From the IMG/VR virus record IMGVR_UViG_2851949629_000003: a stretch of 22,307 nt of DNA. The stretch is one strand, 5' to 3'. The position numbers were made by a program, and so were the translations under genes. The notes under the pieces were generated by a model. It was not told where the DNA came from. It saw only the letters and a program-made list of their open reading frames with translations, and did not search any database. The stretch comes from a virus (Duplodnaviria; Heunggongvirae; Uroviricota; Caudoviricetes). Shown here one piece after another: positions 1,416 to 22,307 of this stretch. Each line of letters starts with the position of its first letter. Position 1 is the first letter of the stretch.

Positions 1416-1433
1416 TGGATATTACTCACTGAT

Positions 1434-2190: not shown

Positions 2191-2218
2191 ATATCCAATG
2201 TGTATGCTGTCGATGCTA

Positions 2219-2693: not shown

Positions 2694-2710
2694 CGCTAAA
2701 GGGGGTTGGT

Positions 2711-3325: not shown

Positions 3326-3343
3326 GCCATCCATGGCTACCAG

Positions 3344-4522: not shown

Positions 4523-4552
4523 GTAAGCGTTAACGGAGTGCCGTATTGACGC

Positions 4553-6166
4553 TTATTTATTGGTGAGTACTACGTTCCATGGCAGGAGTTCGTCAACTCG
4601 GTTGGAAGGCCATTCCGGCAGTACGCTCAGGATATGGCGCAGATACGCTTCCGGATCGATACCGTTCAAACGGCAGGTGCCGATCAGCCCGTACAACAGT
4701 GCTCCACGCTCGCCGCCGTGATCGCTGCCAAAGAACATAAAGTTTTTCTTTCCGAGACAGACTGCACGAAGCGCTCTTTCCGCAGCATTATTATCCGCCT
4801 CCGCCAGACCGTCATCACTGTAATAACAGAGGACATCCCACTGATTCAGTACATAGCTGAACGCTTCGCCCAGTCTGGATTTTTTCGACAGCGTACCATT
4901 CTTCTCCACCATCCATTCATGCAGCGACGTCAGTAACACTTTGCTTCGCTGCTGCCTGACCGCCAGGCGTTCAGACACCGGCAACCCGCGTATTTCGTGC
5001 TCAATGGCGTACAGTTCACTGATTCGCTTCAGGGCTTCTTCTGCCGTCGCACTTTTGCTGCTGATGTATACATCGTGGATTTTTCGCCGGGCATGGGCCC
5101 AGCACGCAACTTCTGTCAGTGCACCACCTTCACGTTCTGCACTGAACAACCTGTCGTAACCTGTGAACGCATCCGCCTGCAGGATACCCCGGAAGGGGCG
5201 GAGGTGTTGCTCCGGGTGTTTCCCCTGCCGGTTCGGCGAGTACGCGAACCAGACCGCTGGAGGAGATGACGAACCCACATTGCGATCATCCCGGACATAC
5301 GTCCAGATACGCCCTGTTTTCGCCTTTTTCTGACCCGGTGCCAGTACCTTTACCGGTGTGTCATCAGTGTGAACCTTGCGGGTGTTCATTACATAACGGT
5401 ACAGGGCATCATTCACCGGTGTCATTAACTGGCAGCACGCGTCAACCCAGTTGGAGAGTAAGGCCCGGCTCAGTTCGACACCCTGGCGGGCAAAGATTTC
5501 ACTCTGACGATACAGTGGCAGATGTTCGCAGTATTTTCCCGTTAACACGCGGGCAAGTAATCCGGGGCCCGCGATACCACGCTCTATCGGGCGGGACGGC
5601 GCCGGTGCTTCAACAATACAGTCACATTTTGTACAGGCTTTTTTTACCCGTTCTGTGCGGATCACTTTCAGGGCACTGCTCACCAGTTCCAGCTGTTCAG
5701 CGCTGACTTCCCCCAGATAATCCAGCTCACCGCCACACTCCGGGCAACAGCTTTCTTCTGGCTCCAGGCGGTGTATTTCACGGGGAAGGTGTGCCGGTAA
5801 CGGACGACGATGGCGCGACTGTCGCAACTGGCGGGGAACCTGAGGATCGTCTTCCCGCCCACTGTAACGATCGCTGTCCTGTTCACGTTGTTTCAGCAGA
5901 GCCTCAGCCAGTTCAACTTCACGACGCAGTTTTTCAGAACGGGTACCGAACAGCATCCGGCGCAGTTTTTCTATCTGAGCCCGCAGATGTTCTATTTCCC
6001 GTTCATCTTCTTCGATCTTTTCTTCGGCACGTGTCAGTGCAGAGCGCAGGAAGGCTTCCGTCTCTTCAACCAGACTCAGTTGCTGGTCTTTCTGACGGAG
6101 GGCTTCAGCCTGCTCAGAGAGCAACCTTTCCAGCTCTGCGATGCGAATGAGGTATTTCTGACTCAT
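4553..6166 (-). CDS. tnpC: IS66-family transposase TnpC (537 aa)
   Basis: Long ORF with coiled-coil N-terminus and Cys-rich zinc-finger-like segment (CPECGG...CTKCDC), typical IS66 ORF3 layout. About 90% identical to the second copy. Confidence 0.9.
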   Translation of the reverse strand: MSQKYLIRIAELERLLSEQAEALRQKDQQLSLVEETEAFLRSALTRAEEKIEEDEREIEHLRAQIEKLRRMLFGTRSEKLRREVELAEALLKQREQDSDRYSGREDDPQVPRQLRQSRHRRPLPAHLPREIHRLEPEESCCPECGGELDYLGEVSAEQLELVSSALKVIRTERVKKACTKCDCIVEAPAPSRPIERGIAGPGLLARVLTGKYCEHLPLYRQSEIFARQGVELSRALLSNWVDACCQLMTPVNDALYRYVMNTRKVHTDDTPVKVLAPGQKKAKTGRIWTYVRDDRNVGSSSPPAVWFAYSPNRQGKHPEQHLRPFRGILQADAFTGYDRLFSAEREGGALTEVACWAHARRKIHDVYISSKSATAEEALKRISELYAIEHEIRGLPVSERLAVRQQRSKVLLTSLHEWMVEKNGTLSKKSRLGEAFSYVLNQWDVLCYYSDDGLAEADNNAAERALRAVCLGKKNFMFFGSDHGGERGALLYGLIGTCRLNGIDPEAYLRHILSVLPEWPSNRVDELLPWNVVLTNK

Positions 6167-6196
6167 GACCGTTTTTATAATGCGGTCAGGAGTTTT

Positions 6197-6547
6197 TTAC
6201 AACATTGTCAGTGAGTTACGGCTGGATGTTTTTGGCTGACGCCAGTCCAGCTTATCGAGGAGCATTGCCAGTTGCGAGCGGGTAATGGATACCTTGCCGT
6301 CACGTACCGCAGGCCAGATAAACTGGCCTTCCTCCAGGCGTTTGGTGAACAGGCACAGACCATCAGCATCAGCCCAAAGAATTTTGACGGTGTCACCCCG
6401 TCGGCCACGGAAGATAAACAGGTGACCGGAGAAGGGATTATCATTCAGCACATGTTGTACCTGTTCTCCCAGTCCGTTGAAGGATTTACGCATATCGGTA
6501 ACGCCGGCAACGAGCCAGATACGGGTACCTGATGGGAGTGAGATCAT
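6197..6547 (-). CDS. tnpB: IS66-family TnpB accessory protein (116 aa)
   Basis: Middle ORF of the IS66 triplet. Its start overlaps the tnpA stop (6544-6547). Confidence 0.85.
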   Translation of the reverse strand: MISLPSGTRIWLVAGVTDMRKSFNGLGEQVQHVLNDNPFSGHLFIFRGRRGDTVKILWADADGLCLFTKRLEEGQFIWPAVRDGKVSITRSQLAMLLDKLDWRQPKTSSRNSLTML

Positions 6548-6969
6548 CTTCCCCTCCCGGTCAGTTCACGGATCAACACTGTGAGCAGCTCTGGCGATGG
6601 ATTTTCCAGCGTCATGTTACCGTGACGGAATTCCACCTTGCAGGAACTGGCACTGACTCTGGTCTGAGTGGAAGTGGATAAAGACGGCGCAATGGCCGCC
6701 ACAGGTTCTTTCTGCTCATCCGGCGTTATTTCTACAGGTAATAATTCAACGCCAGTGTCAGAAGAGGTCGTTACCGGAAGACGCCGCGAAACACGCCCTT
6801 CGTTCTGCCAGAGCCTGAGCCATTTGAAAATAACATTATCATTGACGCCATTTTCACGTGCAATCTGTGCAACACAAGCTCCAGGTTGTGATGCCAGTTC
6901 CACCATACGAAGTTTGAATTCATTCGAATAGTTTTTACGAGGTTCTTTTCGCCAGTCCTGTAATTCCAT
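6544..6969 (-). CDS. tnpA: IS66-family TnpA (141 aa, helix-turn-helix)
   Basis: First ORF of the IS66 triplet, with a conserved N-terminal DNA-binding-like segment (FKLRMVELASQPGA...IFKWLRLWQ). Confidence 0.85.
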   Translation of the reverse strand: MELQDWRKEPRKNYSNEFKLRMVELASQPGACVAQIARENGVNDNVIFKWLRLWQNEGRVSRRLPVTTSSDTGVELLPVEITPDEQKEPVAAIAPSLSTSTQTRVSASSCKVEFRHGNMTLENPSPELLTVLIRELTGRGR

Positions 6970-7054
6970 ACTTAGATGTCCGTCTATATCAGATGGGCGT
7001 CTAAGTTACCAATTCTCGTCTGATGGCTACATACGGCGGTCAGTTTACGCTTAC

Positions 7055-7062
7055 AATGTCTG
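7055..7062. repeat. Right 8-bp target-site duplication AATGTCTG of IS66 copy 1
   Basis: Identical to 4515-4522. Confidence 0.85.
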
Positions 7063-9410: not shown

Positions 9411-10087
9411 TAGAATCCAAGCCCCCCAACAAGACCAATAAGCCCACCACCAATAGCCCCGGCGACATTACCTATACCCGGAACAACGGAACCAAGTTGC
9501 GCACCCGCTAAAGCGCCTGATGCCGCCCCACCAATACCACGCGCAAGACTGGATGGCTGCTGCGCCTGACCTGCACGAATAGCGCCAAGCCCCTGCAAGA
9601 GTTGCCCGGTATTATTGGCGTAGTTTTGCCCTGCTGTTGCCTGCCCTGATGCCGCATTCATCCCGACATTTAGCAGGTTTCCATAATTTTGCATTTGCCC
9701 ACTGAGCCAATTGTTATAAAGCATGGGCGCAATGGAAGATAACTGGTTACTGGTAGCTGTTGAGCCAAGCCCCCCGGTAGCTTCTGCTGAGACAAGGTTC
9801 TGATAACGGGCCTGATCTGCCTGTGTTTTATATAAACCAGAACCAAAGAAATCATTCGCGGCTTTATTCTGCCCTTCCAGAGTCATCAGTCCTTGTAGTT
9901 GTTGTAAAGCAGGCAATCCGACTTCTGCATACGGCTTGAGATTATTCATCACCGTATTCCACTGCTCGCGCTGCAAATCAATTGCCTGCTGCTGGGCCTT
10001 CGCCTGAGCTTTAGAGGCACCACCATCACCGCCTTTTTCGTATACGGCACGATTGAGATGTTTATGAGCTATATGGGTAATTAACAT
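9410..10087 (-). CDS. Gly/Gln-rich protein with glycine-zipper-like hydrophobic C-terminus (225 aa); possible ejection-type protein
   Basis: Start overlaps the upstream stop by 7 nt (ATGTTAA). C-terminus GIGGAASGALAGAQLGSVVPGIGNVAGAIGGGLIGLVGGLGF. Confidence 0.75.
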   Translation of the reverse strand: MLITHIAHKHLNRAVYEKGGDGGASKAQAKAQQQAIDLQREQWNTVMNNLKPYAEVGLPALQQLQGLMTLEGQNKAANDFFGSGLYKTQADQARYQNLVSAEATGGLGSTATSNQLSSIAPMLYNNWLSGQMQNYGNLLNVGMNAASGQATAGQNYANNTGQLLQGLGAIRAGQAQQPSSLARGIGGAASGALAGAQLGSVVPGIGNVAGAIGGGLIGLVGGLGF

Positions 10088-10542
10088 TCGCTGAGTTCCT
10101 TATATTGTTGCCGTGTTAACTGATAAAGCGTTACGCCGACGGGTTTACCACATCTGATATATGCATCGGCCAGGTGACCAACACGGGTAGCGCCAAGCAA
10201 ACGGATAATTGCCCGTCCGTATTTCGTGGTGTCAGGAACCATGGTGATGCTGTTAAGGAATGGTGAGTTTTCGAGAAGCCATTTGCAGAACAATCGATGC
10301 CCTTGCAGTGCATATTCACCACGGAATCCGGGGTCGTACACCGCATGGCATTCAACAATGCTATGCCAGAAGTTACGCACTTCATGAACGCCTGTCAGCA
10401 CTAATCCTTCGTAGATGCCGAGATATACCGCATCAGGCTTGATGTAGTACGTGTGCCCCGGCTCAACAATATTTTCGGTATTGCCAGGCTCGTTAAGAAA
10501 GGCCTGTAATCGCACCGGGTTATCAATAAATTTTAGTTCCAT
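10081..10542 (-). CDS. Hypothetical protein (153 aa), first large gene of the cassette
   Basis: ATG at 10542 with weak GGATGG Shine-Dalgarno. Coupled to the downstream gene. Confidence 0.7.
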   Translation of the reverse strand: MELKFIDNPVRLQAFLNEPGNTENIVEPGHTYYIKPDAVYLGIYEGLVLTGVHEVRNFWHSIVECHAVYDPGFRGEYALQGHRLFCKWLLENSPFLNSITMVPDTTKYGRAIIRLLGATRVGHLADAYIRCGKPVGVTLYQLTRQQYKELSEC

Positions 10543-10558
10543 GCGGTGCCATCCGTTT

Positions 10559-10720
10559 TCACATACAGCCTGCCAGCGCCTTATCTATTAACCCTCGTGC
10601 AATTTCATGCAGAGTTGGCGCTACTCCAATTCCTGATTTTTTACGCTGCTCTTCCTGAATTTTCTTTATCGCTTCCATTTGCTTCTCACTTATCAATACC
10701 GGCTTTACTGAAATAGCCAT
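10559..10720 (-). CDS. Small hypothetical protein (53 aa), possible leader or small regulator of the cassette
   Basis: Not in the supplied track (under 60 aa). ATG at 10718-10720 preceded by AAGGGGG. Translates to MAISVKPVLISEKQMEAIKKIQEEQRKKSGIGVAPTLHEIARGLIDKALAGCM. Stop is 17 bp before the 10542 start. Confidence 0.4.
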   Translation of the reverse strand: MAISVKPVLISEKQMEAIKKIQEEQRKKSGIGVAPTLHEIARGLIDKALAGCM

Positions 10721-10738
10721 AACGCCCCCTTAGAACTG

Positions 10739-10790
10739 TATAAAACAACAGTTATTATAGTTTCGCAAATCGCAATATTCATCATCGTAA
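10739..10790 (-). promoter_or_regulatory. Candidate sigma70 promoter for the cassette operon
   Basis: Minus-strand TATAAT (plus 10754-10759) about 34 nt upstream of the 10720 ATG. The -35 is weak, with two TTGCGA repeats nearby. Confidence 0.25.
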
Positions 10791-10813
10791 TTGCAAAATA
10801 TGAAACAAATAGC

Positions 10814-10846
10814 ACAAAAAAACGCCACCGCTCAGTAGCTGGTGGC
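10814..10846 (-). terminator. Rho-independent terminator on the minus strand, downstream of the primase operon and iteron cluster B
   Basis: Minus-strand RNA GCCACCAGCUACUGAGCGGUGGC (GC-rich stem) followed by GUUUUUUUG. Confidence 0.55.
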
Positions 10847-11041
10847 ATCGTTCTGTGTGTCAGGTTTTGACAGGTTTTTTATGGACTCTAAAAACTATAT
10901 TTATGGTGTCGCATTACTCTTCACGGCAGGCGCTTTTCAGTTCTGCCCTTGCTTCTGGCTCCATTGGTAATTTGATTCGCGATCAGCTATGCGGATGGTT
11001 TGCTGAACAGGCATAACAACTTCTCAGGGGCTGTTTTCTGA

Positions 11042-11118
11042 ACTACGAAAATTTCGTAGTGCTCACTTTCAAAAACGTCACGCCCTTGTACACAGGATTT
11101 TACGAAAGTCTCGTAAAA
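11042..11118. promoter_or_regulatory. Two palindromes sharing a TTACGAAA/TTTCGTAA core; candidate protein-binding sites
   Basis: ACTACGAAA-A-TTTCGTAGT (11042-11060, 9-bp arms) and TTTTACGA-aagtc-TCGTAAAA (11098-11118, 8-bp arms). Confidence 0.3.
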
Positions 11119-11160
11119 CACTCTCTGATGCCAGCCAGGTGTTGTGCGCATCAATTCAGT

Positions 11161-11286
11161 CACATTGTGTTGGTTCAAAATACCGTGTTGTTGGTTCAGT
11201 GTTGGTTCAATAAAAAGAATAAAATCATTATAAAACAATACTCTTTACAAATTGAACCAACTGAACCAACTGAACCAACACCTTTT
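11161..11286. repeat. Iteron cluster B: three GTTGGTTCA units (11169-11209) and three tandem TGAACCAAC units (11253-11279); inverted copy of cluster A, directly 3' of the primase gene
   Basis: Read directly. 11242-11286 is the exact reverse complement of 1204-1248. Confidence 0.75.
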
Positions 11287-11304
11287 CTACGCACATGAAG
11301 AAGC

Positions 11305-14064
11305 TCATTCTTCAGATGAGTTATAATCTCCTGGCTGGTAATTGAGTACATAAACGTTTATTTGTCGTCCCTGAATACGTGGTGATTTTCTTTGGTATCC
11401 ACGACCGCTGTTTGGTGGGGTTAGCATCCCGGCTTTTTTCAACACTTCAGCAAACTGTTTTGCGTTGAAACCACATGCGATCTCCTTTTCAAATGTGGCC
11501 GGGAATGTGTAGAAAATCATTGGGCTTTCGTCATGTTCTCCACGCTGACGGTATCCGGCTAAATCTTTGATGGGCAAATCTGCCGGGCTGTATGGAAATG
11601 GTGCAAAACGGCTAAGCCCATAGGCATTAAGAAATGCCTCCGTTTGTTCAATAATCTGCTGATGTTCTTTGTTACCTGTGCCGAACTCGCGCAACCATGC
11701 GTTATAGCTGTGCTGTATCGCATCACGGCATGTCTGAGCATCCCAGCCTGTTACAACCTCGCCTAACAGCAATGCGGCCTCCAGAATGGCAAATCGCGCG
11801 GCTACACGGTGAACCTGCTCACCATAATCGGATGGGATCAGACTTCTCCATCTGCTTTCGCAGTCACGAACAGTTTTAATTGCCTGTTGCTGGTGGTCTG
11901 CCAGCCATTTAATCCACTCACGCCCGGCTGCGCCGTGGTGATGCTGGTAAGCGTCTTTCAGTGCGTCTGCGTGCTGTTTTCCGTTCTGGTAATCGTGAAA
12001 GCGTACTGCTTTACTCAACGGAATATTCAGCAGTCGCACCAGTTGCCCGGCTTTGGTTTTTCGCCCGGAAGTAGCGATAAATGTTTCTAAATCCATTTCT
12101 CCGGTGCTGATTGCCACTGTACGCCAGCGTTTTAGATCCCGGTTTCCACCATCTTTAGCGCCTTGCAGTTTCCCTACACCGTTAAATAACGCATAGGCAG
12201 ACTGTGAAACGCTGACAGGATCTGCGCCCTGACCAACTTCATCAAGCGGCATTAGTCCGTCATTGTGGGCGGCAGCTTCATTTGCCAGCCCCAGCGCGGT
12301 TCCGTACCACGTCAGCCGCAGTAAATCAGGGTTGCCGTATAAGCTGCTCGCCACGTTTGCCGTGGTGGTCTTACCTGCGCTCGACTGCTCATAGAAATGA
12401 ATGCCGAACCCGTCAGCGCCCACCAGCCCAATCAATGGCGCTGCCAGTGCTGCGCCGATCCCGGTCATCATTGAATAGTTACCAAAGGCCAGACGCGCCA
12501 CGCTATCACGCCAGCTTTTCGCGCTCCCTGAGATAGTATATCCGGCTGCGGCTGAGCTTCTCCCGCTGAACAGCACAGGATTTTCAGGTGTTCCGATGAT
12601 TTCCCCATCAGGCATGATGTACGCTCCGCATTGCCAGCCAGTGGCATGAGCAACACGCCACAATTCACGAGAGCCACTGCGTTGTAGCCAGTCTGCCAGT
12701 ATTGCTCTGAGGCTGCTTTTGGTCGTGACATTTACCCCACCAGCTTTAAGTGTGCGCCATCCTTCACGTTCACCAATATCAGCCAGTGGAATGGCAGCGG
12801 TTGTCGGCGTTTCAGAACCAAACGACAGCCAGCGAAGAATGAGATACTGGTCTTTATCGTCTCTGCCAGTACCGATAACGCTTAACGGAGAACATAACCA
12901 GCTTTCGTTATTGATGATTTCTCCACTCTGGCTGTCAGCTCTCGGAGATACCCAATAAATACCATCCTCGCGGCTTTCTATTCTTGGTTTCAGTGGGTCG
13001 GTATCCATAACCTTAAAATCGCTTCCTTCAATGGTCTGTGGCTCCTGTTTCACGCCATTACCCTGTGGTTGGTACATTGATTTATTGAACGCTTCTGTAG
13101 CGCATTTAATGCCGTGTTTTTGGTGGTAATCATTCCAGTCTGCTTTGTGATCTGTCGGGGGTAATGCCACCCATCCAGAAACAGATAAAGCTGCTTTTTC
13201 TGCTGCTATTCTCCCCGTGTTTTGTCTTCCTTCGCTGTGGTCGTTATCCGCAGCAATGATGATTTGTGCTGAAGGAAATTTATCCCGCAGTACCTGGGCG
13301 ACATATAACAGGTTCCCGGCATCAATCGCCGCCACTGTCAGCGCCTCTGGACGAATTAAATGGGCAGATAATGCCGTTGCCAGCCCTTCTGCGATTAAGA
13401 TGCTCTGTGTTGTTTCTGGTGCGTTTATGGCGTGATATGCCCCTCGCTTTGCTGAACCTGTCAGGAGTCTTTTTTCACCATGTGAGGTAATAGTCTGTGC
13501 TGCTGTTACTGCGCCGGATTTATCCACCAGCGCCAGCAACAGAGATCCATCGGGCAACACGGGGAATGTAAAATCACCTACCCCTTTCGCAACCAGATAA
13601 TCAGATTTGCCGTTTACAGCCTTTCTGCGCATGTCATCAAACTGACGGGAAAACGTATCCCGTCTTTGTTGTTCGTCCTTCTCTGCCCTTTTCAGGCGCT
13701 CCTGTTCGCGTCGCTGGCGCTCGGTTTCCAGTTGTTCCCGTTTCTGGCTGGTGGCTTCTGGTGTTTCCGTTGTCCGGTAATCAATACCCAGAACATCAGC
13801 GGCAAGAAGCGCCGCCTCTGTTGTGTCGCAGTTATTTACGCGTTTAATTAAATCCAGCCCATCACCAGCGCCGCACTGATTACAGATGAAGCTACCGCGC
13901 CCGTTGTCATCGAACCGGAATCGATCTTTACCCCCACATGCAGGGCAGGGAGCATGACGGCGTGGAGAGTCAGGGACATTTATGTTCAGGCAGCCCAGCA
14001 CATGAGGCCAGTTGTTTTCAGACGCACTGATAACCTGACGGATAAGATCAATGTTTCGCATCAC
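11305..14064 (-). CDS. Primase-helicase (P4 alpha-like architecture: zinc ribbon + TOPRIM + P-loop NTPase), 919 aa
   Basis: Zinc ribbon CPACGG...CNQCG near the N-terminus, TOPRIM-like acidic motif IIIAADNDH, P-loop-like SAGKTTT. GTG at 14064 or ATG at 14061. Iterons lie immediately downstream. Confidence 0.85.
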   Translation of the reverse strand: MMRNIDLIRQVISASENNWPHVLGCLNINVPDSPRRHAPCPACGGKDRFRFDDNGRGSFICNQCGAGDGLDLIKRVNNCDTTEAALLAADVLGIDYRTTETPEATSQKREQLETERQRREQERLKRAEKDEQQRRDTFSRQFDDMRRKAVNGKSDYLVAKGVGDFTFPVLPDGSLLLALVDKSGAVTAAQTITSHGEKRLLTGSAKRGAYHAINAPETTQSILIAEGLATALSAHLIRPEALTVAAIDAGNLLYVAQVLRDKFPSAQIIIAADNDHSEGRQNTGRIAAEKAALSVSGWVALPPTDHKADWNDYHQKHGIKCATEAFNKSMYQPQGNGVKQEPQTIEGSDFKVMDTDPLKPRIESREDGIYWVSPRADSQSGEIINNESWLCSPLSVIGTGRDDKDQYLILRWLSFGSETPTTAAIPLADIGEREGWRTLKAGGVNVTTKSSLRAILADWLQRSGSRELWRVAHATGWQCGAYIMPDGEIIGTPENPVLFSGRSSAAAGYTISGSAKSWRDSVARLAFGNYSMMTGIGAALAAPLIGLVGADGFGIHFYEQSSAGKTTTANVASSLYGNPDLLRLTWYGTALGLANEAAAHNDGLMPLDEVGQGADPVSVSQSAYALFNGVGKLQGAKDGGNRDLKRWRTVAISTGEMDLETFIATSGRKTKAGQLVRLLNIPLSKAVRFHDYQNGKQHADALKDAYQHHHGAAGREWIKWLADHQQQAIKTVRDCESRWRSLIPSDYGEQVHRVAARFAILEAALLLGEVVTGWDAQTCRDAIQHSYNAWLREFGTGNKEHQQIIEQTEAFLNAYGLSRFAPFPYSPADLPIKDLAGYRQRGEHDESPMIFYTFPATFEKEIACGFNAKQFAEVLKKAGMLTPPNSGRGYQRKSPRIQGRQINVYVLNYQPGDYNSSEE

Positions 14065-14419
14065 CGTACCCCACGTGGTCTATAGCGTTTGCGATATGGC
14101 TAACCAGCATCTGCCACTTGGTTATTCCGTAATCAGTCAGCATGCCATCATTGTTTAGCCACATATCAAATTCAGCGGTTGTCGCAAGTTTCCACTTATC
14201 GCCGTGGACAGTCCTCATTGCTGGGTACATGAATGCGCAAATCAGATCACAAACATCTGACGGCTTCAGAGATGTAGTAATGGTGCGTCCCTCTGGCGTC
14301 TGAATTGCCATTTTCTCTTCACCAGTAGAATGAAGGTTATGAATCCACACAGCACCAGCAATCTTTGCCACCTGCTCTCCGATTGCGGAGCTAAGCGCCA
14401 TTTCTGCATTTTCACGCAT
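14048..14419 (-). CDS. Hypothetical protein (123 aa), replication-module operon
   Basis: ATG at 14419 with GGGAGG Shine-Dalgarno. Overlaps the primase start. Confidence 0.6.
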   Translation of the reverse strand: MRENAEMALSSAIGEQVAKIAGAVWIHNLHSTGEEKMAIQTPEGRTITTSLKPSDVCDLICAFMYPAMRTVHGDKWKLATTAEFDMWLNNDGMLTDYGITKWQMLVSHIANAIDHVGYGDAKH

Positions 14420-14753
14420 GAGAACCTCCCGCTACAGTTGCGCCCATGTCATTAACCATGCTTTGCCATATCTCACGCCCGACGTCAGTCAATCCGTCCT
14501 TAGTGACGCAACGCTCAATAAGCTCGATCCCCACGGTTTCCCACTGCGGGTAGAACACTTTCATGGCTGCCAGTGTGTAGCTATCGATCAGGCTGCGAAC
14601 GCCTTTTACTCCATTGACGATTTCCACACGTACGGCCTCGCCGTCCGCATCAACCATGAAATAGTCCCCTCCGCTGGTGGAGGTAATGTGGTTATACAGT
14701 GCCGACGCATACTTATTTGCCAGCGCATTCAGTCGGAAATTTTTAGTAATCAT
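14412..14753 (-). CDS. Hypothetical protein (113 aa)
   Basis: ATG at 14753 with GAGGATGG Shine-Dalgarno. Stop overlaps the next start. Confidence 0.6.
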   Translation of the reverse strand: MITKNFRLNALANKYASALYNHITSTSGGDYFMVDADGEAVRVEIVNGVKGVRSLIDSYTLAAMKVFYPQWETVGIELIERCVTKDGLTDVGREIWQSMVNDMGATVAGGSHA

Positions 14754-14763
14754 GGTTCCATCC

Positions 14764-15366
14764 TCAGTGCGTCACTGGTTCCGATGGCATGCCGTTTTCA
14801 TTCAGTTCAGCTATAAAGCTGTTGTGAAGTTCAGCAAGCGTTTCACGACCAAATGGAGTCAGTGCTCCTTGTTCCACATCCATCATGGCTCTGTAGAAAA
14901 TGATGGAGCGTTCTGTGCCAGACTCGATGCCAAAACGTTCTATCATCGCTCCCTCAATGTTGTTTGCCATAGCGAGGCGCTCTGCTACTGGATACAGCGG
15001 CATGGCAACGATGCCGTTGGAATAAACAGCCACTTCGGAAGGATTGCCAGTATCATCAATGATGCTGACAGTGCCGTTTTCCTCTCTCATTTCCAGCATG
15101 AATACTGTTGCGATCAGCCATCTCCACATAATGACGTTATGCTGTGATGTGTAATCGAAATATCCCTGGTTGCCGCCATCGGCTATAGCGAGATGTATTG
15201 ACATACCTTCATCTGGTTTATCGTCATAATCCCCGGCATCCAGACGATTTACGGCATCAATATATGAGACGGTCTCAACGCGTTCTGTCATGCCATCGTT
15301 GCTGCGGTGCATGATGTTTACGCCGTCAGGCGTTGCTTCTGCATGGAAAGTTAAGAAATTATTCAT
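14764..15366 (-). CDS. Hypothetical protein (200 aa from MNNFLTF...; the track's longer ORF extends to 15471)
   Basis: ATG at 15364-15366 with GAGG Shine-Dalgarno, in the ATGAATAA overlap with the upstream stop. The longer version would overlap the upstream gene by about 100 nt. Confidence 0.6.
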   Translation of the reverse strand: MNNFLTFHAEATPDGVNIMHRSNDGMTERVETVSYIDAVNRLDAGDYDDKPDEGMSIHLAIADGGNQGYFDYTSQHNVIMWRWLIATVFMLEMREENGTVSIIDDTGNPSEVAVYSNGIVAMPLYPVAERLAMANNIEGAMIERFGIESGTERSIIFYRAMMDVEQGALTPFGRETLAELHNSFIAELNENGMPSEPVTH

Positions 15367-15580
15367 GTTTCGCCTCGCCTGAATGATTCTGTAACTCATA
15401 TTTGCCCAACAATTCGTCTGCTTCCTGAATAGCTTCTGGTACGCCATTGAGCAGTGACATAACCGCGCCAATCATTAACTTGTCTCTGTTGCTTGGGCTG
15501 GCCCCTTCAAGCCAGAACCCTAAAACAGTCTGAACCTGTGCGATGCGACATTGCGCTTCAATGAGCTGGATGTTGGTCAT
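15359..15580 (-). CDS. Hypothetical small protein (73 aa)
   Basis: ATG at 15580 with GGAGAG Shine-Dalgarno. Overlaps the upstream stop. Confidence 0.55.
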   Translation of the reverse strand: MTNIQLIEAQCRIAQVQTVLGFWLEGASPSNRDKLMIGAVMSLLNGVPEAIQEADELLGKYELQNHSGEAKHE

Positions 15581-15840
15581 TTCGCACTCTCCACATCGAT
15601 TAAACTGATATCTATCAGGGAGGTGACTTTTTGTAGCCAGCTATTGATTACTGTCGCCTGTTCCCCTCCCACCGAGGGAATAATCTCATTCATCACATGA
15701 ACCAGACCTGTGCGCGCTCTGGTAAGCCGTTCAGTCGCGCAATCTGCGGGAGTGAATGTGTCTGGATATGGCTCTTCGCGCCCCAGCAATGATTCAATTT
15801 CCAGCTCACACGGATGACGATAAATTAAGTTGATATTCAT
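15577..15840 (-). CDS. Hypothetical small protein (87 aa)
   Basis: ATG at 15840 with GGGGGTG Shine-Dalgarno. ATGA overlap with the upstream gene. Confidence 0.55.
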   Translation of the reverse strand: MNINLIYRHPCELEIESLLGREEPYPDTFTPADCATERLTRARTGLVHVMNEIIPSVGGEQATVINSWLQKVTSLIDISLIDVESAK

Positions 15841-16031
15841 TTTTCACCCCCAAGAATTACCAGCTCTGCACGGGCATCGTTAACCAAAGATGAGCACGCT
15901 TTAATCGCATCCACGACATCAGCAGCGTCCATCTCTTCAGCCGAAAGACTGACAGCAAGCAGGACAGCCGCTGCTTGCTCGATTAATTGAAGTGCGGACG
16001 TAAGGCGAGGGGTATTAATTGAGTTATTCAT
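15837..16031 (-). CDS. Hypothetical small protein (64 aa from MNNSINT...; track ORF extends to 16088)
   Basis: ATG at 16029-16031 with GGGGG Shine-Dalgarno, in the ATGAATAA overlap with the 355-aa gene stop. Confidence 0.55.
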   Translation of the reverse strand: MNNSINTPRLTSALQLIEQAAAVLLAVSLSAEEMDAADVVDAIKACSSLVNDARAELVILGGEK

Positions 16032-17091
16032 TGGTTGCCCCCGTTTTGCATGGCATTTGTCCACCTTCCAGCAGGAAATGAACGTCACGAACGGCGAGAT
16101 CCAATATCGCGAGTAACGCCTTCAGTTTTTCGTCTCGTGAGGGAGAGTTGCTCACCAGAATGTCATTAATCACTTCTGTCAGTGTGATGATCTGGCTTGT
16201 GCGTTCGAGGGGATCCATATGCACATCGTAGGTTTTAATCATGTGCCACCTCCATGCGGATACGACCAGCAAAAAAGCAGACGTGATCGCGCACCAGAGA
16301 ACGGCGAGCATCGCGTTCAGACTCGGCAGCAATATGATGAATTTTGGCGGTAATTGTCGGGCAATCGCGGCGAACTGCGGCGATAATCCAGATAAATTGC
16401 GGTTTTTGGGTAGGGGTAGTAGCCAGCATGTGGCAGCCTCCTTCAGATAGCAGGTTACGCTACCACCGGAAACGCCAATTTCGCTGGTGGTAGCCCAGAC
16501 AGGGTTGGCGTAACCGGCTCTGAAGGATACCGGCGCTTCCGAAGAAGCCCCCGCCTGAGCCACCATTGATTGACAAAGGCGCTGGATTATACACCAACGC
16601 CCAAAAAATGGGTGAGTCAGACCTACGACATAAAAAAAGACGCTCGGCGCGTCATATGTCGCCTTCAGAATTTTCAGGACGCCAATCCCGGCACCCGTTT
16701 TATGAGGTGCCTTATAACCATAAACCGTGTTGCCGCATAACGGCAAGCTCTTTTTTATGGACTCCGAAAACTCGCTATTGGAAGCACCAGATGCACAGTA
16801 CATCGCGCTCATTTCGTTAACGTCACGCGCGTGGACGAATGTTTTTGTGGAGTCACTACACGAGCGGAAGACATCATCTACGACCAGAAATTCTCTGGCG
16901 CAGCCGCTGACCTTCTCAATGCTAATATCATCGCCCGAGATTTCTGGTATGGTTAAGGCATCCGTTCCGACCACCAGCAAATGATAAACTTTGCTTGTAT
17001 CTGCTGTATTAATGCCTGACTTTGCTGTCATATTGCTGTATTTTGGCGACATACCAGCCAGTGAAAATATCTTCTTCTGGGCGGTTAGCAT
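16024..17091 (-). CDS. Hypothetical protein (355 aa), unrecognised; C-terminal half contains hydrophobic stretches
   Basis: ATG at 17091 with GGAGG Shine-Dalgarno. Coupled to both neighbours. No recognised motif. Confidence 0.55.
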
Positions 17092-17267
17092 TTGTTAACC
17101 TCCGCGAACTCCTTCATGAAACGTGCCAGCGGTTGTACGCATGGCGATTGATACCCGTCGCGATAAAACGTCACTCGGTTGTGAGACACGCTTTCGACAG
17201 TAACGAGTGCTCCGTGGGCATCTTTGTAGCGTTTTTGAGGTTGTGGTGTTCCTGTCGGCTTAAACAT
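17085..17267 (-). CDS. Hypothetical small protein (60 aa from MFKPTGT...; track ORF extends to 17354)
   Basis: ATG at 17265-17267 with GGAGG Shine-Dalgarno. Overlaps the upstream stop by 8 nt. Confidence 0.5.
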   Translation of the reverse strand: MFKPTGTPQPQKRYKDAHGALVTVESVSHNRVTFYRDGYQSPCVQPLARFMKEFAEVNKC

Positions 17268-17984
17268 GGACCGCCTCCAGACGCTTGGCGAGCCAGCGTT
17301 GCGACAGGCGGGTGAGTTCTCCTTTGCGCTGCTCATATTCCATGCCCATATCAATTAACGTGATATTGGTGCTTTCGAGATATGAGAGGTGCTCAAGCTG
17401 TTCTGCGTTCATATGGTCGCGAGGTTCGCCAGAATAGCCATTTATCCGCGCCCACTGCTTAGCAGTTAGCCCACCAAGAACGATACGAGAAATCATATTG
17501 CTCTCGTTTGTGTAGTGGTGTTGCTGCGTCGTTTTCCCCATCTCGGCACGGGCCATATTCAGCGCATCGCACATTGGCTTAAAGTTGTTTGCGGCACTGA
17601 TACGGGCTTTTAGCTGGCGACGATAGCGGGCGGCGATTTCAGGCACGCTACGCTGTAATTCTTCCTCGCACTGGATGAAATAACGGCGGATAGCGCGACC
17701 CTGATCATTGCGTTCGATCATTGCCAGTTCTTTTGCCATTCCGACACTTAACAGATAGTCTTTACCGGGTCTGCCAGAGTGCTTAATCTTGCTGTAAGCC
17801 GCGCTATTCGGGCTTTTCCCCAAATTTGGGGAAATAGTTTTATGGACTGAGTAATCGTGCCCAATGGTGAAGTCATATTCAGAGATGCGATCAGTGATCC
17901 ATGTAGAGAAGTCTTTTCCCACGCCCAACGCTTTGTGTAACGCTTTTGCGCTAACAATATTGGTTTCACGCCCACCTATATGAC
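17260..17984 (-). pseudogene. AntA-domain (phage antirepressor-type) gene, 5' end removed by IS66 copy 2
   Basis: Motifs SAKALHKALGVGKDFSTWI and GRPGKDYLLSVGMAKELAMIERNDQGRAIRRYFIQCE fit the AntA-type N-terminal domain as recalled. The frame is open from inside the IS terminus with no ATG or GTG start and no Shine-Dalgarno; the track's start is a TTG. Confidence 0.6.
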
Positions 17985-18014
17985 GTAAGCGTCAACGGAG
18001 CACCGTATTGACGC

Positions 18015-19628
18015 TTATTTATTAGTGAGTACTACGTTCCATGGCAGGAGTTCGTCAACTCGGTTGGAAGGCCATTCCGGCAGTACGCTCAGGATATGGC
18101 GCAGATACGCTTCCGGATCGATACCATTCAACCGGCAGGTGCCGATCAGCCCGTACAACAGTGCACCACGCTCGCCGCCGTGATCGCTACCGAAGAACAC
18201 GTAATTTTTCTTTCCGAGACAGACTGCACGAAGCGCTCTTTCCGCTGTGTTATTGTCCGCCTCCGCCAGACCGTCATCACAGAAGTTGCACAACGCAACC
18301 CAGTGCTTCCTGATATACCGGAACGCATCTCTCAGACGGCATTTTTTCGATAACGTGTGTTCTTTCTCCTGCATCAGCTTATACAGGGAAGTCAGTAGCG
18401 GTTTACTCTGCATTTGCCTGACCGCCAGGCGTTCAGACACCGGCAACCCGCGTATTTCGTGCTCAATGGCGTACAGTTCGCCGATTAGTTTCAGTGCTTC
18501 TTCCGCCGTCGCGCTTTTGGTACTGATATATACATCGTGGATTTTGCGCCGCGCATGAGCCCAGCATCCTGCTTCCGTCAACGCGCCGCCTTCACGTTCG
18601 GCACTGAACAGCCGATCGTAACCTGCGAACGCATCTGCCTGCAGGATACCCCGGAAGGGACGAAGGTGTTGCTCCGGATGTTTACCCTGATGGTCCGGTG
18701 AGTAGGCGAACCAGACCGCCGGAGGTTCTGGCGAACCGGCATTTCGGTCATCCCGGACATACGTCCAGATATATCCTGTTTTCGCCTTCTTCCTGCCCGG
18801 TGCCAGTACTTTTACTGGTGTGTCATCAGTGTGAACCTTGCGGGTGTTCATCACATAACTGTACAGGGCATCATTCAGCGGAGTCATTAACTGGCAGCAC
18901 GCATCAACCCAGTTGGAGAGTAAGGCACGGCTCAGTTCGACACCCTGGCGGGCAAAGATTTCACTCTGACGATACAGTGGCAGGTGTTCGCAGTATTTTC
19001 CCGTTAACACGCGGGCAAGTAACCCCGGGCCCGCGATACCACGCTCTATCGGACGGGATGGTGCCGGTGCTTCAACGATGCAGTCACATTTTGTACAGGC
19101 TTTTTTTACCCGTTCTGTGCGGATCACTTTCAGGGCGCTGCTCACCAGCTCCAGTTGTTCTGCGCTGACTTCCCCCAGATAATCCAGCTCACCGCCACAC
19201 TCCGGGCAACAGCTTTCTTCAGGCTCCAGGCGGTATATTTCACGGGGGAGATGTGCCGGTAACGGACGACGATGGCGCGACTGTCGCAACTGGCGGGGAA
19301 CCAGCGGGTCATCCTCACGCCCACTGTAACGATCGCTTTCCTGCTCGCGTTGTTTCAGCAGGACTTCAGCCTGTTCAACCTCACTACGCAGTTTTTCAGA
19401 ACGGGTTCCGAACAGCATCCGGCGCAGTTTTTCTATCTGAGCCCGCAGATGCTCTATTTCTCGCTCATCTTCTTCGATCTTTTCTTCGGCACGTGCCAGT
19501 GCAGAGCGCAGGAAGGCCTCCGTCTCTTCAACCAGACTCAGTTGCTGGTCTTTCTGACGGAGGGCTTCAGCCTGCTCAGAGAGCAGCCTTTCCAGCTCAG
19601 CGATGCGAATGAGGTATTTCTGACCCAT
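18015..19628 (-). CDS. tnpC: IS66-family transposase TnpC (537 aa), copy 2
   Basis: Collinear with the copy-1 TnpC, about 90% identical by eye. Confidence 0.9.
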   Translation of the reverse strand: MGQKYLIRIAELERLLSEQAEALRQKDQQLSLVEETEAFLRSALARAEEKIEEDEREIEHLRAQIEKLRRMLFGTRSEKLRSEVEQAEVLLKQREQESDRYSGREDDPLVPRQLRQSRHRRPLPAHLPREIYRLEPEESCCPECGGELDYLGEVSAEQLELVSSALKVIRTERVKKACTKCDCIVEAPAPSRPIERGIAGPGLLARVLTGKYCEHLPLYRQSEIFARQGVELSRALLSNWVDACCQLMTPLNDALYSYVMNTRKVHTDDTPVKVLAPGRKKAKTGYIWTYVRDDRNAGSPEPPAVWFAYSPDHQGKHPEQHLRPFRGILQADAFAGYDRLFSAEREGGALTEAGCWAHARRKIHDVYISTKSATAEEALKLIGELYAIEHEIRGLPVSERLAVRQMQSKPLLTSLYKLMQEKEHTLSKKCRLRDAFRYIRKHWVALCNFCDDGLAEADNNTAERALRAVCLGKKNYVFFGSDHGGERGALLYGLIGTCRLNGIDPEAYLRHILSVLPEWPSNRVDELLPWNVVLTNK

Positions 19629-19658
19629 GGCCGTTTTTATAATCCGGCCCGGCGTTTT

Positions 19659-20009
19659 TTACAACATTGTCAGTGCGTTAAGGCGGGATGTTTTTGGCTG
19701 ACGCCAGTCCAGCTTATCGAGGAGCATTGCCAGTTGCGAGCGGGTAATGGATATCTTACCGTCATGCACCGCAGGCCAGATAAACTGACCTTCCTCAAGG
19801 CGTTTGGTGAACAGGCACAGACCATCAGCATCAGCCCACAGGATTTTAATCGTGTCTCCCCGTCGGCCACGGAAGATAAACAGGTGACCGGAGAAGGGGT
19901 TATCATCCAGCACATGCTGTATCTGCTCCCCCAGACCGTTGAAGGATTTACGCATATCAGTAACGCCGGCAACGAGCCAGATACGGGTACCTGATGGGAG
20001 TGAAATCAT
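19659..20009 (-). CDS. tnpB: IS66-family TnpB (116 aa), copy 2
   Basis: Collinear with the copy-1 TnpB. Confidence 0.85.
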   Translation of the reverse strand: MISLPSGTRIWLVAGVTDMRKSFNGLGEQIQHVLDDNPFSGHLFIFRGRRGDTIKILWADADGLCLFTKRLEEGQFIWPAVHDGKISITRSQLAMLLDKLDWRQPKTSRLNALTML

Positions 20010-20443
20010 CGTCCCCTCCCGGTCAGCTCACGGATCAACACCGTGAGCAGCTCTGGTGAAGGATTTTCCAGCATCATTTTACCGTAATGGAATTCCACAT
20101 GGCAGGAAGCTGCACAAGCAACTGATAATGCCTCCGGAGCAGGAGCATCTGTAGCACAGCGCGGGGTGTCGATAAGTTCCACTGGAACCAGAGTCGGAGA
20201 GGCCGGAAAAGATTGTGATACTGTAGGGCCTACAATAGTTGGAGGCATTCTACGAGAAATACGTCCTTCTCTTTGCCAGAGGCGTAGCCATTTAAAAATC
20301 AGGTTGTTATCAACGCCATGTTCCCGGGCCAGTTGTGCAACATTGGCATTTGGTTTCGAAGCCAGTTCAACCATATGAAGTTTAAATTCATTAGAAAATA
20401 TCCGGCGGGTTCCGGAGCGCCAGTCTGTAGGTTTATCCATCAA
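20006..20443 (-). CDS. tnpA: IS66-family TnpA (145 aa), copy 2
   Basis: Conserved N-terminal segment (FKLHMVELASKP...IFKWLRLWQ); middle region diverged from copy 1. Confidence 0.85.
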   Translation of the reverse strand: MMDKPTDWRSGTRRIFSNEFKLHMVELASKPNANVAQLAREHGVDNNLIFKWLRLWQREGRISRRMPPTIVGPTVSQSFPASPTLVPVELIDTPRCATDAPAPEALSVACAASCHVEFHYGKMMLENPSPELLTVLIRELTGRGR

Positions 20444-20521
20444 TAGAACTCCGTCTAATTTAGAAGGAGCTCTAATTTAGTCTGCAAGGAGCAGGTGTTA
20501 CAGACGGCATTGGCTTTACGC

Positions 20522-20665
20522 TTACACAAAAGCAATTGCCCGACTTCCAATTTTTACCTGTTTAGGGAACCTCCCCTGACTAATAAGACGATAAATCCAT
20601 GCTTTGCTATAACCAGTTCGCCTTTGAACTTCAGAGAGACGAATTAATGAATTGTAATTAGCCAT
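20522..20665 (-). pseudogene. alpA: alpA-like (AlpA-family helix-turn-helix regulator) gene, 3' end truncated by IS66 copy 2
   Basis: Not in the track (47 codons). ATG at 20663-20665 with AGGA upstream. Translates to MANYNSLIRLSEVQRRTGYSKAWIYRLISQGRFPKQVKIGSRAIAFV; the stop codon is supplied by the IS terminus. Intact AlpA-family proteins are about 65-70 aa, so roughly 20 codons are missing. Confidence 0.6.
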
Positions 20666-21092
20666 TTATTAATATCCTGTACTAATGACGCAATAACCCC
20701 CTCCTGCAACGAATGGCGAGAGTTTTATTTGCGTCAAATGTCGAATACGCCAAAGACCACAATATGAAAAACATATTGCGGTCTTTTATAAAAGATAGTC
20801 AGATTGTTTTGGTTTGTTTGCTCCACAAGGGTAGAGCTACCCTGCATTTCGGCAGGATCACGCTATTAGGCGTGACATCCAGTAGTTTTAAAGAACAATT
20901 GCGCTTTGTCAGCGCCAAAGCCTGTTAAAGAACATTCCGCTTTTCAGCAGCGTAGAAGGCTCAATACACCTTCGTTTATAAAAGAGCGATTGCCCTTCTC
21001 CAGGGCTAACTGTTAAATAGCAATCCTCTGTGAGTTTTTATCAATCTACTCCCCTATACTTTAGTAAACCTCTGTATACTTGTCCAGTTGTT

Positions 21093-22307
21093 TCATGCGT
21101 GTTTTTCAAACACCATATGCACCACATTTCCGCCATGCTCGAGAGAATCCATATAGTCGGCATACCATTGAAGCATCTCCCGCCGTCCATCCAGATATTG
21201 CGCATGGTTGTATGTGCCACGAATTGAGTTCTTATCAACGTGAGCGAGCTGCGTTTCTATCCACGCGGTGTTATAGCCCTGCTCATGCAAAATCGTGCTC
21301 ATAGTGTGTCGGAACCCATGACCAGTTACACGTCCAGCGTAGCCAATGCGCTTAAACACTTGGTTTATGCTGGCCTCACTCATTGTTTTCCTTGGATCAT
21401 TGCGCCCGGGAAACATAAGAGGGTAATTGCCTGTTATTTCTCTAATCTTCCCAATAAGCGAAAGAGCCTGCTCAGACAATGGCACAATATGAGGCCGCCG
21501 CATTTTCATACGTGAAGCGGGTATCTCCCATATAGCCTTGTTGAAATCAATTTCATCCCATAATGCGCCACGTAGTTCGCCAGTTCGCAAGCCGGTGATA
21601 ATCAGTAGGCGAGCCGCCATAACAACCAATGCGCTTCCTGAGTAACTGGATAATGCCTTGAAAAAATCAGGTAATTCTTTGGTCGTAAGGAAAGGGTAAT
21701 GATTAGATTCATGGCCTTGCATCGCGCTAGTAAGGTCTGGTGCAGGGTTATACTCTGCGCGACCAGTGACTATTGCATAGCGGAAAACTTCCCCGCACCG
21801 CTGCCTCACTTTTTTGGCTTTTTCTGTCGCACCGCGCCCCTCGATGCGCCGCAGCACATTCAGAAGTTCAAGTGGTTTGATTTCGGCGATTGGTTTTTTG
21901 CCAATGTAAGGGAACACATCTTTGTTGAAGGCTTCGAGGATGTCTGAAGCATAACCAGCAGACCATTTTTTTAATTTGCTGCTGTGCCACTCAAGGGCAA
22001 TATCTTTGAAGGTGTTGTTTAACTGCGTTTCCCGGGCAATCTTTTCCTCTCGTTTCGCTTCCATCGGATCGATACCACCAGCGATACCTCTTTTCGCATC
22101 TTCACGTTTTGCCCGAGCATCGGCTAGAGTAACCTCAGGATACACACCTAGTGCCAATAGCTTCTCTTTACCAGCTACACGATATTTAAGTCGCCAGTAT
22201 TTACCTCCATTAGGTTTTACCAAGAGATACAAACCGCCACCATCGGCCAGCTTGTAAGCCTTCTCTTTTGGCTTGGCTGTGTCTATTTGACGGGCATTGA
22301 GTTTCAC
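21093..22307 (-). CDS. int: P4-type tyrosine integrase (404 aa in window; N-terminus at or beyond the right edge)
   Basis: Catalytic-region motifs GLRTGELRGALWDEIDF, GHGFRHTMST and RGTYNHAQYL; N-terminal KPKEKAYKLADGGGLYLLVKPNGGKYWRLKY arm-binding-like segment. Start codon at the window edge is GTG, so the gene may begin outside. Confidence 0.9.
   Translation of the reverse strand: MKLNARQIDTAKPKEKAYKLADGGGLYLLVKPNGGKYWRLKYRVAGKEKLLALGVYPEVTLADARAKREDAKRGIAGGIDPMEAKREEKIARETQLNNTFKDIALEWHSSKLKKWSAGYASDILEAFNKDVFPYIGKKPIAEIKPLELLNVLRRIEGRGATEKAKKVRQRCGEVFRYAIVTGRAEYNPAPDLTSAMQGHESNHYPFLTTKELPDFFKALSSYSGSALVVMAARLLIITGLRTGELRGALWDEIDFNKAIWEIPASRMKMRRPHIVPLSEQALSLIGKIREITGNYPLMFPGRNDPRKTMSEASINQVFKRIGYAGRVTGHGFRHTMSTILHEQGYNTAWIETQLAHVDKNSIRGTYNHAQYLDGRREMLQWYADYMDSLEHGGNVVHMVFEKHA

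Follow-up and report, generated by a model that had tools for sequence, protein, structure and literature searches.

The question raised by this locus is why a complete insertion sequence (IS) of the IS66 family lies between two unrelated 8-mers, with a shortened gene on either side of it. In the 22,307-nt stretch analysed here (hereafter the window), the element occupies positions 17985..20525, on the minus strand. It is a complete ISEc43 of 2541 bp, with the same ends and length as eight other copies, and it is 100% identical to RefSeq-annotated ISEc43 in other E. coli over exactly this span; its limits are set by this identity and by its terminal sequences (GTAAGCGTCAACGG...TTTACGCTTAC). 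The terminal inverted repeats are imperfect and begin with GTAAGCG: both ends start with GTAAGCGT and share further positions. As expected of an IS66-family member, three consecutive genes are found, all on the minus strand: tnpA (20006..20443), which codes for an accessory protein with a helix-turn-helix domain (Pfam HTH_Tnp_1, E=1.9e-10), tnpB (19659..20009; IS66 Orf2-like, Pfam TnpB_IS66, E=3.1e-36) and tnpC (18015..19628), which codes for an IS66-type DDE transposase of 537 amino acids (Pfam DDE_Tnp_IS66, E=7.9e-96) where Pfam also recognizes zf-IS66, LZ_Tnp_IS66 and the IS66 C-terminal element DDE_Tnp_IS66_C. A preliminary description of the window had treated this element as the second copy of another one located further to the left. 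The two are in fact different members of the family, about 84% identical over the IS: the left one (4523..7054, minus strand) is an ISEc23 of 2532 bp, which has 99.3% identity to the ISEc23 annotated in TW10690. It is a simple insertion, flanked by a perfect 8-bp duplication, AATGTCTG, at 4515-4522 and 7055-7062, and it interrupts a P22 gp16-like injection-protein gene.

No such duplication surrounds ISEc43, as the preliminary description had noticed. The flanking 8-mers are those given there, TATATGAC on the left (17977..17984) and ACAAAAGC on the right (20526..20533). Each occurs once in intact relatives, the former in FMU073332, where it continues into CAGGAATAACC..., and the latter after ...TTTCAGACTCA. 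The same description had pointed to a repeat at slightly shifted boundaries as a possible objection; the ends are fixed by the 100% identity to other copies, and there is no direct repeat of at least 5 bp within 20 bp of either boundary. The absence of a duplication reflects the history of this insertion, not the ISEc43 element itself: perfect 8-bp duplications are found at six of the eight other copies sampled, the two without one both being in IS-rich settings. A published copy, in SGI1-B-Ec1, is flanked by an 8-bp repeat (PMC6531882), and the one present in the fliD-fliC spacer of ATCC 8739 by 8-bp direct repeats CGAACAGC; both are the same 2541-bp element, with tnpA, tnpB, tnpC and terminal repeats GTAAGCGT..., and are 99.4-100% identical to ours, but the window copy, unlike these two, is devoid of direct repeats. 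BLAST matches running 10 bp into the right flank had suggested a longer IS or a common target. This was rejected, the extension being due to a chance likeness of the ATCC 8739 duplication, CGAACAGC, to ACAAAAGC.

Judged by its gene order and similarities, the DNA carrying ISEc43 is an EcCIMP1-like phage-inducible chromosomal island (PICI), probably at thrW/proA. EcCIMP1 is the PICI of E. coli MP1 (NZ_CP139039, 3557883-3585854), whose induction, excision and packaging by a helper phage were shown with Kapi1 (Pick, Stadel & Raivio, ISME J 2025; PMC11773190). It lies at tRNA-Thr thrW beside proA, probably also the locus of the window island, and shares with the latter the gene order int, alpA, a gene for a 143-amino-acid protein, antA, DUF4222, ash, small ORFs and a TOPRIM/DUF927 primase, and further genes (DUF2824, P22-like ejection-protein homologues and a PerC/ANR-like regulator); AlpA residues 1-47 are identical and the DNA is 97.5-99% identical over the shared parts. 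At one end of the window, a full-length tyrosine integrase gene (21093..22307, minus strand; 404 amino acids, as in ABU 83972; Pfam Arm-DNA-bind_3, Phage_int_M and Phage_integrase) is followed, in the same direction, by a truncated alpA. The intergenic region between them (20666..21092, minus strand) is intact, 100% identical to that of ABU 83972, and putatively contains the helper-inducible alpA promoter; the alpA promoter reporter used for EcCIMP1 spanned -449 to +50 (PMC11773190). On the other side of the IS, the co-directional genes (11305..17267, minus strand) for a DUF4222 protein, an Ash family protein, six small ORFs and a 919-amino-acid primase-helicase with Zn-ribbon, TOPRIM and DUF927 domains are seemingly all intact and collinear with those of ABU 83972 (89.6-100% identity). 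Capsid, tail and lysis genes are missing, and only homologues of P22 ejection proteins are found, as in EcCIMP1. As for the location, islands adjoining tRNA-Thr and proA match the int-alpA flank at 100% identity, the tRNA itself being outside the window, and one contig that shares the alpA-IS junction also carries proA, proB and phoE; a search of the left-hand portion of the window gave no att repeat of at least 12 bp. The window island differs from EcCIMP1 by ISEc43 and a 616-bp deletion in the alpA-antA segment, by ISEc23 in the injection-protein gene, by the lack of alpA_1 and by a dissimilar left-end cargo; furthermore, EcCIMP1 is mobile whereas the window copy is predicted to be immobile.

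The extent of the deletion was established by the alignment with intact relatives that the preliminary description had called for. On both sides of the IS the window is collinear with the intact islands of ABU 83972, MP1 and FMU073332: position 17984 corresponds to 11383 in the ABU 83972 record L002 and position 20526 to 12000, so that exactly 616 bp (11384-11999) are absent at the very place occupied by ISEc43. They comprise the end of alpA (20 codons), the entire gene for the 143-amino-acid protein and the first 36 codons of antA. Both flanks are found together in one place in 255 complete genomes. Of the 25 records listed, 22 have the flanks at precisely the query spacing plus 616 bp, and the remaining three additionally have an IS1B insertion. 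FMU073332 has the exact TATATGAC allele, the 616-bp gap and the same far-end chromosomal flank, a LysR remnant.

The truncated alpA (20522..20665, minus strand), the master regulator gene of the island, consists of 47 codons and a TAA stop. It retains 46 native codons plus two nucleotides; the third base of codon 47 (GTG) is supplied by the IS end, and the TAA lies wholly inside it, in agreement with the earlier claim of a cut after codon 46 with a stop contributed by the IS. The predicted product, a fragment of an AlpA family member, equals residues 1-47 of the 67-amino-acid AlpA of ABU 83972 and MP1 and thus lacks residues 48-67, i.e. the last 20 of 67 codons. Its Phage_AlpA domain (PF05930) is incomplete, since it covers positions 3-43 of the 51-position Pfam model, compared to 3-51 for the intact homologue. 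On the left, the remnant of antA, a gene of the AntA/AntB antirepressor family (17260..17984, minus strand; Pfam AntA, PF08346; PHROG anti-repressor Ant), keeps 725 of 834 nt. As had been proposed, its start is gone: codons 1-36 plus one nucleotide are missing, the remnant begins at residue 38 of a 277-amino-acid product, and what is left, although it contains the AntA domain sequence, is not a complete ORF, the ATG start being absent. There is no ATG near its 5′ end, the earliest possible in-frame start being a TTG at 17928. Intact homologues as short as the forms seen in the window would have spoken against a truncation; those that we found are longer, for AlpA as well as for AntA. One point of the preliminary description has to be corrected: antA is not the head of the operon, since intact relatives have int, alpA, the 143-amino-acid protein gene and antA in this order, all on a single strand, with alpA as the first gene of the unit. 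The deleted 143-amino-acid protein has no family match in Pfam, NCBIfam or PHROGs. Some of its orthologues are labelled ‘PM1773 family’ in RefSeq.

Taken as a whole, the best explanation is an ISEc43 insertion into an EcCIMP1-like island, accompanied by loss of the adjacent 616 bp and by loss of mobility, to which we assign a probability of about 0.85; taken by itself, the claim that such an island has lost 616 bp in association with ISEc43 is very probable. ISEc43 would first have transposed into the control region of the island, and the 616 bp adjoining it, from inside alpA via the 143-amino-acid protein gene into the 5′ end of antA, would then have been lost. The likeliest route would be an adjacent deletion mediated by an IS end (intramolecular transposition) after one insertion, a process which would remove one copy of the duplication and leave the IS between unrelated 8-mers. 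We favour this single-IS route, if only slightly. Because descriptions of the transposition chemistry of IS66-family elements are scanty, the argument for it is drawn by analogy from other DDE insertion sequences: adjacent deletions or intramolecular transposition are known for IS1 and IS10, and have reportedly been described for IS26. In those cases too the IS is kept, flanking DNA is lost on one side and the IS is left without target duplication, but for the window ISEc43 the mechanism is deduced from the product only, and our literature search found no paper specifically on adjacent deletions by IS66-family elements.

The preliminary description had concluded from the missing duplication that an adjacent deletion took place. 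The alignment bears out a deletion next to the IS; adjacent deletion is, however, one of two IS-based routes to the same product, and sequence alone does not discriminate it from recombination between two IS copies. In the latter scenario, two ISEc43 elements would have inserted independently in the same orientation, one in antA (at TATATGAC) and one in alpA (at ACAAAAGC), and homologous recombination between them would have dropped one IS together with the 616 bp. This would yield exactly the product seen, and it would be in keeping with the repeated IS hits observed in this short region in other strains (ISEc23 in TW10690, IS1B upstream of antA in the UTME strains) and with the absence of duplication at the two other ISEc43 copies in IS-rich settings. 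But it takes three events against two and requires that the same IS inserted twice in a stretch of 616 bp; nor is there a chimeric signature in the IS, although none would be expected from identical copies. Moreover, genomes carrying just one of the two insertions were sought in vain: neither site holds a simple ISEc43 insertion, the expected intermediate, in 5426 complete E. coli genomes, in GTDB representatives or in metagenome contigs. We thus see the two-insertion route as possible but rather doubtful. A collapse of repeats during assembly could also have misjoined the flanks, the true structure being two ISEc43 copies around the 616-bp segment or a simple insertion. A 2.5-kb IS with a median of three matching places per E. 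coli genome is a classic site for such misjoins, and the short-read contigs containing the right junction all end inside the IS. The left junction was not confirmed in the read sets carrying the right one by exact look-up of possible antA-remnant products, one look-up matching unrelated split-antA alleles. However, the alpA-ISEc43 right junction, shared by the read sets ERR1937342, ERR862921 and SRR15732122, recurs in several independent read-set assemblies, where it adjoins proA and int, and therefore alpA does carry an insertion; the window also traverses the related ISEc23 cleanly, with the duplication that a proper insertion should have; and even if the assembly were wrong, IS insertions would disrupt both alpA and antA. 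An artefact is therefore very improbable.

Just as improbable is a larger rearrangement, in which ISEc43-mediated recombination between islands or loci (e.g. the thrW and yicC islands) would have fused int-alpA to a foreign antA-primase module. What suggests it is the drop in identity to ABU 83972 from 100% right of the IS to 97-98% immediately left of it and 89.6% in ash, and the fact that the best matches to the left flank alone are in yicC-adjoining islands, those of TCM3e1 and TW10690. It is nevertheless largely refuted, because the island is collinear at its two ends: in FMU073332, and in more than 250 genomes besides, these flanks are contiguous, 616 bp apart, at up to 99.5% identity, including the TATATGAC allele; the far end of the island adjoins a LysR remnant, as does the thrW island of FMU073332; and the primase region is again 99-100% ABU-like. 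The mosaic is therefore attributable to ordinary island recombination, not to a break at the IS. Finally, a simple insertion without any deletion, with a duplication at shifted boundaries or with natively short alpA and antA, finds no supporting evidence and can be regarded as already refuted, given the fixed IS ends without a nearby repeat, the lengths of the intact homologues (67 and 277 amino acids) and the gene for the 143-amino-acid protein lying between them.

What would the insertion with its adjacent deletion entail for the island? AlpA would lose its conserved C-terminal ESEIDEWIE segment, which aligns to the conserved SEVEEWIE segment of the solved AlpA-family structure 8c3t, and the 47-amino-acid product is inferred to have lost its function; with its helix-turn-helix kept, it might retain some DNA binding. 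The 143-amino-acid protein would be gone, AntA would be left without start codon, and 2.5 kb of IS would lie between the alpA promoter and the operon leading to the primase. Low-level read-through from the IS, whose genes are co-oriented with the island operon, would be possible; a hairpin at the IS end (-27.2 kcal/mol, z = -2.96) is not a canonical terminator because it has no U-tract, and promoter and terminator scans gave no signal above that of shuffled sequence. In EcCIMP1, alpA is induced by the helper phage Kapi1 and autoregulates, and when it is deleted, excision, circularisation and transfer are lost (PMC11773190). Intact AlpA from this type of island has the same protein accession as the AlpA of EcCIMP1, WP_000035054.1, and because of the effect of that deletion on excision and transfer the window copy is very probably immobile: it would, we predict, no longer excise, replicate or transfer upon helper-phage induction. 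The earlier suggestion of a defective element is thus supported through this comparison with EcCIMP1.

Three cases of IS elements in the alpA-antA segment are now at hand: ISEc43 with the 616-bp deletion in the window, ISEc23 in TW10690 and IS1B in the UTME strains. The EcCIMP1-like island of TW10690 (yicC-dinD) has, like that of the window, a same-orientation IS66-family element in antA, 4 bp from the left junction of the window; it differs in that the element is ISEc23, in a simple insertion with the duplication CACCGATG, and the DNA to its right retains the 5′ fragment of antA, the 143-amino-acid protein gene and alpA. One could imagine that the segment is a recurrent IS target, that hosts benefit when the satellite is thereby immobilised with its cargo kept, that the co-oriented IS provides constitutive read-through into the replication operon, and that all this reflects selected domestication instead of neutral decay, but we hold this to be improbable. 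The cargo named in such a scenario is superinfection immunity and the PerC/ANR-like regulator. Should IS hits in the alpA-antA segment prove to be enriched, this would be relevant to the taming of phage satellites by hosts. An ordinary ISEc43 in a known, EcCIMP1-like type of satellite is routine mobile-element decay and not a new system, and its importance beyond annotation is slight: the window island is a decayed, probably immobile satellite, not to be included in counts of functional PICIs. The alpA-IS junction, present in several read sets and absent from the 5426 complete E. coli genomes, is usable as a lineage marker. The locus also adds a natural alpA-truncation allele in a family where dependence on AlpA has been shown only with engineered deletions.

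Two elements of the IS66 family lie in the window, each with its genes on the minus strand; they are different insertion sequences, not copies of the same IS as assumed in the preliminary description. The element at the site under study (copy 2) is ISEc43: it occupies 17985-20525 (2541 bp), starts with GTAAGCGTCAACGG and ends with TTTACGCTTAC, and carries tnpA, tnpB and tnpC (a 537 amino-acid DDE transposase), all with the expected Pfam domains. The RefSeq-annotated ISEc43 of several E. coli chromosomes and plasmids shows 100% identity to exactly this segment. The other element (copy 1, at 4523-7054, 2532 bp) is ISEc23, 99.3% identical to that of strain TW10690, and is bordered by a perfect 8-bp duplication, AATGTCTG, at 4515-4522 and 7055-7062. 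Identity between the two is about 84% over the IS, going from 62% to 95% by region.

The flanks of ISEc43 are part of an island found widely in E. coli. On the right side (5′ part of alpA, intergenic region and int) the window matches many genomes, including ABU 83972, at 100% identity. In ABU 83972 the island adjoins tRNA-Thr and proA and has the following order on one strand: int, a 67-aa AlpA-family gene, a 143-aa gene, antA/AntB (277 aa), DUF4222, ash, small ORFs, a TOPRIM/DUF927 primase, DUF2824 and P22-like ejection-protein genes. Given this order, alpA heads the unit, and not antA as proposed initially. The same arrangement is found in EcCIMP1 of E. coli MP1, a phage-inducible chromosomal island that has been characterised by experiment and is mobilised by Kapi1, a P22-like phage (PMC11773190); the AlpA of ABU 83972, FMU073332 and MP1 has one and the same accession, WP_000035054.1. 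The alpA_1 of EcCIMP1 is absent from the island studied here.

When the window was BLASTed against the ABU 83972 island locus, three collinear blocks were obtained: window 4038-4522 with locus 1-485, 7055-17984 with 478-11383 (the 8-bp overlap with the preceding block being the ISEc23 duplication) and 20526-22307 with 12000-13781. Locus positions 11384-11999 are therefore absent from the window, and the segment whose deletion had been postulated is thus identified, with a length of 616 bp. A query made of the two fused flanks found both of them in one place in 255 complete genomes; in 22 of the 25 records listed, the span exceeds the query length by 616 bp; the remaining three, from UTME strains, are longer through an IS1B insertion. 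In the best match, FMU073332 (99.5%), the exact TATATGAC allele is followed by CAGGAATAACC..., the 616-bp gap, and ...TTTCAGACTCA preceding ACAAAAGC. What was lost comprises the last 20 alpA codons (ESEIDEWIEKCILESRDEVA), the entire 143-aa gene, a 12-bp spacer and antA codons 1-36 plus 1 nt. As described earlier, alpA is cut by the IS, which also supplies the stop: the last base of codon 47 (GTG) belongs to the IS end, in which a TAA also lies, and the product corresponds to residues 1-47 of the AlpA of ABU 83972, FMU073332 and MP1. The removal of the 5′ end of antA is likewise confirmed; there is no ATG near the 5′ end of the remnant, the first possible in-frame start being a TTG at 17928. 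Both truncated homologues are thus shorter than their intact counterparts, and the loss of the whole 143-aa gene had escaped notice.

The 8-mers flanking ISEc43 do differ (TATATGAC at 17977-17984 and ACAAAAGC at 20526-20533), and no direct repeat of at least 5 bp was found within 20 bp of either end, which leaves no room for an 8-bp repeat at shifted boundaries. Eight other ISEc43 copies were extracted and their ends, length and flanks compared: all are 2541 bp long with the same ends, and six have perfect 8-bp duplications, as does a published insertion (PMC6531882). Absence of the duplication is therefore an exception for ISEc43 and signals a secondary event. Such rearrangements are not rare, since two of the eight sampled copies have no duplication, both in IS-rich contexts. 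These two, in plasmid NZ_CP024248 and in NZ_CM128582, adjoin other transposase genes.

The missing 616 bp bear out the proposal of a deletion beside the IS, but two IS-based routes yield the observed product, and the sequence cannot separate the single-IS route from recombination between two ISs. In the former, a single ISEc43 would have inserted in alpA or antA, and one of its ends would have attacked a nearby target intramolecularly, with loss of the intervening DNA and of one duplication copy. This route is drawn by analogy from other DDE elements, because a literature search for IS66-family transposition chemistry or IS66-mediated adjacent deletions found no paper describing them. Alternatively, two co-oriented ISEc43 insertions, one in alpA and one in antA, would have recombined, in which case the crossover would leave no trace because copy 2 is identical to canonical ISEc43 copies. 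On parsimony we favour the single insertion (two events against three), but recombination is kept alive by the repeated IS hits in the alpA-antA region. In TW10690 an ISEc23 (9882-12413 of the island locus) lies in antA with the duplication CACCGATG, 4 bp from the left junction of the window, and is clearly an independent simple insertion; in UTME strains IS1B is located directly upstream of antA (1454-2151 of the UTME-9 locus). These hits hint weakly that antA was the original ISEc43 target. With three cases seen, the segment may be a hot spot for insertion, or immobilised satellites may have been selected.

Because islands at the yicC locus give the best matches to the left flank taken alone, a fusion of two different islands at the IS was also considered. 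Right of the IS the window is 100% identical to ABU 83972, directly left of it 97-98%, and the ash gene diverges (89.6%). Three results speak against such a fusion. Intact thrW islands, e.g. FMU073332, have the left-flank allele of the window contiguous with its right flank; window 1-1844 corresponds to the far end of the thrW island in FMU073332 together with the chromosomal flank there, a LysR-type remnant adjoining paoD; and the primase region is 99-100% ABU-like. The mosaic of left and right identities is the product of ordinary recombination among related islands, and the loss at the IS is local rather than part of a larger rearrangement. Positions 1-411 encode a C-terminal fragment of a LysR-type regulator and represent the chromosomal flank also seen in FMU073332.

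Deleting alpA of EcCIMP1 abolishes excision, circularisation and transfer, and alpA_1, its second AlpA-like gene, is no substitute (PMC11773190). In an alignment with the solved AlpA-family protein 8c3t, the segment lost from the truncated AlpA falls on the conserved SEVEEWIE stretch, and the remainder covers only positions 3-43 of the 51 of the Pfam model, which makes loss of function likely. The alpA promoter region is intact, and the antA-to-primase genes are now 2.5 kb of IS away from it. The proposed loss of native control of the replication operon is supported. Since ISEc43 is co-oriented with the operon and the hairpin at its end (-27.2 kcal/mol) lacks a U-tract, read-through from the IS into the antA-to-primase genes is possible; promoter and terminator scans were uninformative. 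The island has also taken a second inactivating IS hit, the ISEc23 that splits a P22 gp16-like injection-protein gene (flanking ORFs 3344-4321 and 7051-7989), which fits the picture of decay. The ISEc43-linked loss is ordinary decay, driven by an IS, in a satellite family already known.

P22 ejection-protein homologues, Inj_translocase (PF16928) and DUF2824, are encoded by the satellite at 7989-10542; EcCIMP1 also has such homologues, for which roles in packaging or superinfection immunity are discussed (PMC11773190). Iteron-like repeat clusters (GTTGGTTCA/TGAACCAAC) occur twice, at 11166-11286 and 1204-1336, some 10 kb from each other and inverted relative to one another, and both are conserved in ABU 83972, MP1 (EcCIMP1) and FMU073332. 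One is directly downstream of the primase gene and is a likely origin of replication; the other is beside a PerC/ANR-like gene. ORF 887-1174 has an ANR/PerC-like small regulator score (E=5.5e-6) below the curated cut-off.

Neither ISEc43 junction was found among 5426 complete E. coli genomes, nor in GTDB species representatives or metagenome contigs. An exact look-up of the 47-aa AlpA product returned 22 contigs. In several read sets, ERR1937342, ERR862921 and SRR15732122 among them, contigs carry this same alpA-ISEc43 junction next to int, proA and proB, and all of them end within the IS, as expected of short-read assemblies; the allele is therefore real and common to a lineage. Other matches of the look-up, such as contig L019, were rejected as intact alleles cut by the contig end. 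In some related islands (contigs L022-L027, from metagenomes and read sets), antA is called as two genes, of about 112-114 aa and 159 aa, which points to an antA allele with an internal stop or a frameshift in other lineages.
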